20,747 nucleotides of DNA, taken from Escherichia coli (GTDB lineage Bacteria > Pseudomonadota > Gammaproteobacteria > Enterobacterales > Enterobacteriaceae). The stretch is taken from the NCBI RefSeq assembly GCF_003334765.1, contig NZ_QOWT01000049.1. One strand, 5' to 3'. Positions 932-1,635 of the stretch are shown one piece after another. The position numbers and the translations under genes are program-made. Under the pieces are notes generated by a model. The model was given only the letters and a program-made list of their open reading frames with translations. It did no database searches and was not told the DNA's origin. Numbering within the stretch: the stretch's first letter is position 1; each line of letters starts with the position of its first letter.

Positions 932-1635
932 CTACCAGTGACCATACGGATAGGGCTTTTCCTTGATAAAATCGCGGATAAATGGATCGTAACCGTTAGC
1001 CTTGATGTAACTGAAATCAATCTTGTTGGGAACATTTTTGCATATCAGCATATCATCTCCCGTCAGGGTGAACTGTCGGGCAGGATTCTGGAGTACAACA
1101 GGATTACGATTGTCTTTTAACCATACCCTGACTTTACCACCGGGGGGCAGGCCAATAATCATTTTGTTTCGGTAATATATTTTTCCCGGACGATAAGTAT
1201 CAGGATAGGCAGTCAGCATCTGCTGCCACGTATCCCGGCTGAACCAGATCTCCGTCTCATACGCCTTTTTATCGATAACTGAGTCCCAGCATACCGTCAT
1301 CCTGACAGGCAGCGCCTTGCCAATATTAAAACTGGCTAAAAAACCGCCTACGTGCTGGCTCCATTTTCCCACACTGCTCTGACTGGGTTCAGTCGGATCC
1401 AGTCGCCGGAAAAAGCTCTCCCGGATATCCCCGTCCTCCAGATACACCATTGTCACCAGTGCCGGCAGATTTTTCGGGTAAAAAAATTGAATTCCCAGTG
1501 GTCGTAAGGCAACTTCTGCCCCCATTGCTCCACGCCATCGCCCAGCAGCGTCCTCACACCAGCCCTACGGTCATGGCAGCCGACAGCCAGCATTACGCCC
1601 ACTATCACGCCCACCATCAGCGGTAATCGTCTCAT
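932..1635 (-). pseudogene. Putative lipoprotein gene, frameshifted (signal peptide frame 1635-1453, continuing frame down to 932)
   Basis: Minus-strand ATG at 1633-1635 preceded by GAGGAGG. N-terminus MRRLPLMVGVIVGVMLAVGC is a lipoprotein signal peptide with lipobox LAVG-C. That frame stops at 1453 while an overlapping frame is open from about 1564 to 932, so a frameshift lies in 1453-1564 (the C5 run at 1519-1523 is one candidate site). Confidence 0.4.

Follow-up and report, generated by a model that had tools for sequence, protein, structure and literature searches.

Tli1-EAEC, the immunity protein against the T6SS-1 phospholipase Tle1 of EAEC, is an outer-membrane lipoprotein that inhibits Tle1, and both binding to the cognate Tle1 and inhibition of the phospholipase have been demonstrated for Tli1-EAEC only (PMC9860674). 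Its architecture is a lipoprotein signal followed by a DUF2931 domain (10.1101/2024.03.05.583533). A further Tle1-immunity lipoprotein gene, tli1b (PA3292) of P. aeruginosa PAO1, is second and redundant and has a 1-nt indel in an A-rich run; its protein was undetectable, and the gene has been proposed to be a pseudogene (PMC13133936). Orphan T6SS immunity genes or islets, which lack an effector and lie in an acquired island, are found, for example, in gut Bacteroidales, as acquired interbacterial defence clusters, and in an islet of Salmonella Typhi, and are described as intact and protective (10.1101/471110, PMC7400221).

The locus analysed here lies on the minus strand at positions 932–1635 of the window, a 20,747-nt stretch of Escherichia coli DNA (contig NZ_QOWT01000049.1). 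On sequence grounds, it is a pseudogene of a Tli1-family immunity lipoprotein. With Tli1-EAEC (EC042_RS24225 and EC042_RS24230) it has in common a lipoprotein signal, a lipobox Cys with a non-Asp residue at +2 and then the DUF2931 domain, and its intact relatives lie directly 3′ of a DUF2235/Tle1-type gene. It differs in being a divergent paralogue rather than a sci-1 copy, in being plasmid-borne by origin and outside a T6SS cluster, and in being both orphaned (without an effector gene) and frameshifted, with signal peptide and domain on no single polypeptide. Like tli1b, it is a second, redundant gene of this kind with a 1-nt indel in an A-rich run; however, tli1b belongs to the DUF3304 fold family rather than DUF2931 and still adjoins its effector, and the indel lengthens the tli1b ORF, whereas that in the window truncates. 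The family, the orphan immunity concept and pseudogenisation through homopolymers are already known, and the window case adds a decayed member. Taken as a whole, the locus is very probably an orphan type VI secretion immunity gene that came from an integrated plasmid, lost its effector and became a pseudogene when its T8 run contracted to T7. The positions of the features are given in Table 1.

Table 1. Features of the window, with the basis on which each was assigned.
Feature	Position	Strand	Basis
YagK/YfjJ-like decayed gene	78–559	+	comparison with intact 188-aa genes (loci L005, L012)
ColE1-type plasmid-derived segment, immunity gene and origin remnant	560–1666	−	local BLAST, 95.8% identical to E. 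albertii pEA5_2
RNAI, antisense replication-control RNA of ColE1-type origins	753–858	+	Rfam RF00106, 59.9 bits (gathering score 47)
Body frame, DUF2931 domain	932–1564	−	frame analysis; Pfam PF11153 on restored protein; identity to Tli1-EAEC
5′ fragment of pseudogene	1453–1635	−	ORF, lipobox, RBS; residues 1–52 align with intact proteins
Lesion, 1-bp deletion at gene nt 143–150, T7 on coding strand (A7 on + strand)	1480–1486	−	sole indel in alignment
Junction: last ~21 nt and TGA (1648–1646) of lost tle1-like (DUF2235) gene, RBS	1636–1666	−	alignment, homology boundary
DrmD/BrxH-like SNF2 helicase	1918–4785	+	PADLOC
IetA	4787–5791	+	PADLOC
IetS, S8 peptidase	5801–8188	+	PADLOC
Type III restriction-modification Mod	8198–9826	+	PADLOC
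Type III restriction-modification Res	9829–12699	+	PADLOC

Two overlapping reading frames make up the locus. The first starts at an ATG (1635–1633) preceded by a GAGGAGG Shine-Dalgarno sequence (1647–1641) and stops at a TGA (1455–1453) after 60 codons. Its N-terminus, MRRLPLMVGVIVGVMLAVGC..., fits a PROSITE-style lipobox pattern, the lipobox being LAVG-C with Cys20 as its cysteine and His at +2. Following this signal region, 32 authentic mature residues lead into eight out-of-frame residues (TRKICRHW) and the stop. The second frame is open from 1564, directly after a TAG at 1567–1565, to its stop at 934–932; it overlaps the first by 112 nt, and its authentic part extends from the T-run to the stop. 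An earlier note, made from the sequence of the window, had described a lipoprotein signal peptide with a good RBS in the frame ending at 1453 and a long frame to 932 that opens only from about 1564, and each of these elements was found as described.

To place the shift, the window was aligned at the base level with the genes of pEA5_2 (E. albertii, 98% identical) and pSTEC17_183-a (STEC, 88%), each of which is one 705-nt CDS annotated as ‘DUF2931 family protein’. Exactly one indel was seen within the gene in this three-sequence alignment, TTCAA-T8-ACCCG in the intact genes versus T7 in the window. All intact homologues have T8 at this point, reading TTC AAT TTT TTT TAC CCG (F N F F Y P). When one T was added to the window sequence, the two frames were joined into a 705-nt ORF, the 234-aa product of which was identical to WP_024200229.1 (strains CFSAN004176 and A24) and differed in amino acid from the E. 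albertii pEA5_2 protein at 3 of 234 codons. The T7 contraction parts the export signal from the DUF2931 domain. The reading of the earlier note, a single lipoprotein gene cut by a homopolymer-adjacent frameshift, was therefore upheld, since one added T yields the known protein. That note had pointed to two runs in the overlap but left the causal one unnamed. The C5 run was exactly where it had been placed (1519–1523), and was rejected as the lesion site because it is identical in the window and all homologues aligned. The run of seven A, to which the alignment assigns the shift, had been given one base off, at 1481–1487.

The restored protein matched Pfam DUF2931 (PF11153) with E = 2.1e-31 over residues 43–232 and model positions 10–182 of 182. 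Against the two Tli1-EAEC copies, it showed 50% and 48% identity over 221 aa (E = 2e-73 and 4e-67, respectively). In strain 042, these copies are part of the sci-1 T6SS cluster, ~77 kb from the plasmid remnant and in the same pheU island. No family was returned when the restored protein and the plasmid Tle1-like protein were scanned against NCBIfam, and a PDB sequence search with the restored protein returned no relative at E ≤ 1. CFSAN004176 and A24, with their T8 alleles, encode signal peptide and domain on a single polypeptide, which the T7 window does not. The call of a lipoprotein gene was borne out by these data; the Tli1-type identity of an orphan T6SS immunity gene and the ColE1 remnant had not been recognised.

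The RefSeq (PGAP) annotation divides the locus into two CDSs, WP_001387040.1 (‘hypothetical protein’) and WP_001387039.1 (‘DUF2931 family protein’), the latter being 197 aa long, called from an internal ATG at 1525 and without a signal peptide. Taken at face value, with an ATG start in both ORFs, this would mean two separate functional genes, one for a 60-aa lipoprotein and one for a 197-aa cytoplasmic DUF2931 protein. Against this, all homologues outside the window lineage are one continuous 234-aa protein and a single added base fuses the ORFs perfectly. The sequences peculiar to each half also matched nothing in the family, neither the last 8 residues of the 60-aa ORF nor the ~15 residues with which the 197-aa ORF begins, ahead of the shift. 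Moreover, the characterised member acts in the periplasm as a lipoprotein (PMC9860674), while the 197-aa product has no export signal. Two independent genes, which the earlier note had proposed to look for among homologues, were not seen there, the homologues being one 234-aa ORF, and we consider this reading highly improbable.

A change of 1 bp in a homopolymer of 7–8 bases is a classic error type on some sequencing platforms, and another homopolymer lesion occurs 1.3 kb away. The true sequence could accordingly be T8, with the gene intact and the homopolymer miscounted by the assembler. Megablast against 5426 complete E. coli genomes placed the region in 75 of them; it was also present in 10 plasmids, where the matches spanned 768 bases versus 767 of the query. 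Dozens of complete chromosomes, sequenced by many laboratories, matched the window at 100% identity over an 861-nt stretch. The T7 stretch was the same, base for base, in at least 46 of the listed complete genomes, which were produced by many groups over years and include finished 042, 55989 and E24377A as well as at least 10 O104:H4 assemblies. The 60-aa and 197-aa split products each occurred on at least 1000 contigs in a collection of 15 billion proteins, compared to 67 contigs for the intact chromosomal-type protein. The other long ORFs of the window were unbroken (SNF2, 955 aa; IetS, 795 aa; Res, 956 aa; Pic, 1372 aa). Because T7 is identical in so many genomes, the split products are so widespread and the long ORFs are intact, systematic homopolymer error was dismissed, and a miscount at this run is given practically no credence. 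The T7 lesion is inherited and real. Of the two explanations offered in the earlier note, systematic assembly error and a decaying flank, it is the second that was correct, as the lesion is inherited and the neighbouring YagK/YfjJ-like gene is also broken.

This neighbouring gene is cut by IS1 at 77/78 and has C7 at 168–174, compared to C8 in the intact allele, together with an extra A at 447. The C7 run, also reported earlier as a homopolymer frameshift, is a real 1-bp contraction relative to the intact C8 gene. Three lengths of this run were seen in near-identical islands: the window has C7, CFSAN004176, whose gene is intact (188 aa), has C8, and A24 has C10. The C-run looks more length-variable than the T-run, and the C10 of A24 may be an assembly error. 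Positions 1–77 (+) of the window were identified, by visual comparison with the known end of the element, as lying inside the right end of an IS1 copy. The sister strain UPEC69 is without this IS1, and its integrase-region junction of the island differs.

The putative immunity gene sits in an integrated ColE1-type plasmid remnant within the pheU island, as indicated by the 95.8% identity to pEA5_2 and the RNAI at 753–858. The plasmid pEA5_2 is 5353 bp (5.35 kb) in size and encodes Rop. On the upstream side of the immunity ATG, the plasmid homology extends for just 31 nt, to 1666. The intact relatives have a DUF2235 ‘Tle1-like’ gene as the direct upstream neighbour, with 10 nt between its end and the immunity start codon; this arrangement was found in STEC plasmids, in the DETEC-P1056 chromosome and, across the record start, in pEA5_2. 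The tle1-like product of these relatives is 56% identical to Tle1-EAEC. When the tle1-like coding sequence was sought across the window by tblastn, none was found (best E = 0.19), only ~21 nt of its 3′ end being left.

Several observations concern the plasmid module itself. In pEA5_2 (NZ_CP117577.1), the full pair is present (tle1-like, 4889–5353 plus 1–1224; tli1-like, 1238–1942) and there are no T6SS genes. The same tle1-like/tli1-like module is carried on large STEC plasmids, and the STEC protein type was found on at least 1000 contigs. In E. coli DETEC-P1056, the effector-immunity module is present as a whole integrated plasmid, and it is also found in locus L012 at 1283–5027. A 34-nt inverted match (88%) between 825–858 of the window and 2016–2049 of pEA5_2 recurred in all plasmid comparisons and is probably the RNAI/RNAII stem-loop region matching its own reverse complement. 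No relevant paper on Tle1, ColE1 plasmids and T6SS was found in the literature collection searched.

Approximately 66 full orphan chromosomal copies were counted in complete genomes, the counts being approximate and taken from the records listed. The window allele, with T7 and otherwise full length, was found in ~47 genomes. T7 combined with a 12-bp in-frame signal-peptide deletion and a 3′ truncation after nt ~578 was found in 14. The T8 copies were fully intact in two genomes (CFSAN004176 and A24), carried TGC→TGA at the lipobox Cys20 codon in two (CE0007a and CE0026a) and were truncated at the 3′ end in one (TW10573). Two further genomes retained only a 60-nt relic. Intact orphan copies therefore number only 2 of ~66. 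By comparison, the toxin-linked copies aligned at the base level (pEA5_2, STEC17-183 and DETEC-P1056) all had T8 and a 234-aa ORF, and the remaining plasmid matches had the 768-base span, most of them annotated as DUF2931 beside DUF2235. The restored gene and the pEA5_2 gene are separated by 8 synonymous and 3 non-synonymous codon differences, a pattern consistent with purifying selection before orphaning. The Bacteroidales and Salmonella Typhi genes, as their sources present them, and the window gene differ in this respect: ~64 of the 66 chromosomal copies are inactivated, which argues for decay rather than a retained defence.

T7 was tied to one flank haplotype. Nevertheless, T7 and T8 were each found with and without the 3′ truncation, giving all four combinations, so more than one change in the length of the T run may have taken place. 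TW10573, the only genome with T8 plus truncation, could be an assembly error.

These run-length data bear on whether the T7 allele is still in use. The T run could act as an ON/OFF slipped-strand switch, or T7 could leak full-length lipoprotein through −1 frameshifting or transcriptional slippage. Read in the zero frame, the run and its surroundings (AAU UUU UUU ACC) conform to an X XXY YYZ heptamer, on which slipping by −1 would bring in UAC (Tyr) and yield exactly the wild-type FNFFYPK. T7 and T8 also occur on near-identical backgrounds, and the four truncation combinations imply recurrent run-length change or recombination. However, no stimulatory RNA structure was found in the 90 nt downstream of the run (z = +0.78, with 155 of 200 shuffles folding at least as well), and the two-frame arrangement is not conserved, the plasmid and intact chromosomal homologues being a continuous T8 ORF. 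As the T7 allele is linked to one haplotype and the clonal O104:H4 assemblies (at least 10) are uniformly T7, switching is rare at best. Nonsense codons or truncations have inactivated other copies, lesions for which a switch would have no need. Efficient phase variation, or slippage by RNA polymerase, would in E. coli usually call for a run longer than 7–8. The four-combination pattern was not accepted as proof of phase variation, since it depends on the one T8-plus-truncation assembly, possibly erroneous, and recombination explains it equally well. Recoding or a contingency switch was consequently judged improbable.

Programmed −1 sites such as those of dnaX (A AAA AAG) and IS1 insAB′ (A AAA AAC) likewise have a homopolymeric slippery heptamer in the zero frame at the junction of overlapping frames. 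The window differs from them in having no downstream stimulator, a two-frame arrangement that is not conserved and a plain ORF as the ancestral state. In sister genomes, an IS1 with an annotated programmed frameshift is located ~1.5 kb from the lesion.

In strain 042, the order of the surrounding elements is tRNA-Phe, integrase, IS1, plasmid remnant, defence cluster and pic. An isrK-like sRNA match was found at 1721–1800 (−) with an Rfam score of 56.8 bits (gathering score 50), between the start of the SNF2 gene and the plasmid junction, where it is the pseudogene's immediate neighbour on the upstream side; isrK is an Hfq-binding island sRNA of Salmonella. A terminator-like hairpin is present at 1740–1727, at the isrK match. 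Between this hairpin and the immunity ATG, no sigma-70-like promoter was found by consensus scan, a weak form of negative evidence. The defence island identified by PADLOC (1918–12699, +) adjoins the pseudogene, and no DISARM or BREX partners were found near the SNF2 gene. In strain 042, the SNF2 gene (about 5568–5825 of the 042 locus versus ~1918–2200 of the window) has a 1-bp deletion at flank alignment column 3373 and is split by RefSeq into two CDSs, whereas it is intact in the window and most other strains. This deletion is another independent lesion of the same island. The serine-protease autotransporter gene pic was assigned to 16158–20276 (+) by position relative to strain 042. Antisense to it are long ORFs at 17736–18269 and 19248–19655 (−), on the strand that we take to be the place of setA/setB (ShET1).

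Based on these data, a history of the locus can be proposed. The ancestor would have been a 234-aa outer-membrane Tli1/DUF2931 lipoprotein that, by analogy with Tli1-EAEC, blocked a Tle1-type phospholipase acting in the periplasm. The tle1-like/tli1-like pair would have been carried on small ColE1-type plasmids, from which a piece with the immunity gene and the origin may have joined the pheU island, with the effector severed at a point 31 nt before the ATG of the immunity gene. Once its toxin was gone, this gene would have drifted, and in the window lineage replication slippage probably shortened T8 to T7. Translation from the signal peptide would then end after 60 codons, giving at most a tiny lipoprotein with 32 authentic mature residues. 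The DUF2931 body would be made, if at all, only from the internal ATG and without an export signal, and the 197-aa product could not reach the periplasm as it has no signal peptide. With either product, periplasmic immunity would be lost.

Some features count against a pseudogene. The body frame is fully open past the shift and the allele is very common, which would also fit either a recent lesion that hitch-hiked in successful clones or some residual use. The slippery U UUU UUU context could, as far as its sequence suggests, restore a low level of full-length protein. We hold it very improbable that the T7 allele is partly alive, whether by rare −1 slippage on U UUU UUU, by an extra U from RNA polymerase or by flipping between T7 and T8. 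If it were, this EAEC/O104:H4 island, widespread as it is, would retain a protection against plasmid-borne Tle1 toxins that costs little and is either low-level or switchable.

The outcome will not surprise specialists, and its practical value is in annotation and in confidence in the assembly. The two RefSeq halves, present in dozens of genomes including O104:H4 outbreak strains, should become one tli1-like pseudogene. Both homopolymer-adjacent frameshifts of the flank are inherited; the assembly is therefore trustworthy and the other frames of the window need no correction. For the biology of the family, small ColE1 plasmids are indicated as vehicles for T6SS effector-immunity pairs. The locus also provides a natural example of an immunity gene that is intact beside its toxin and decays by several independent routes when orphaned.
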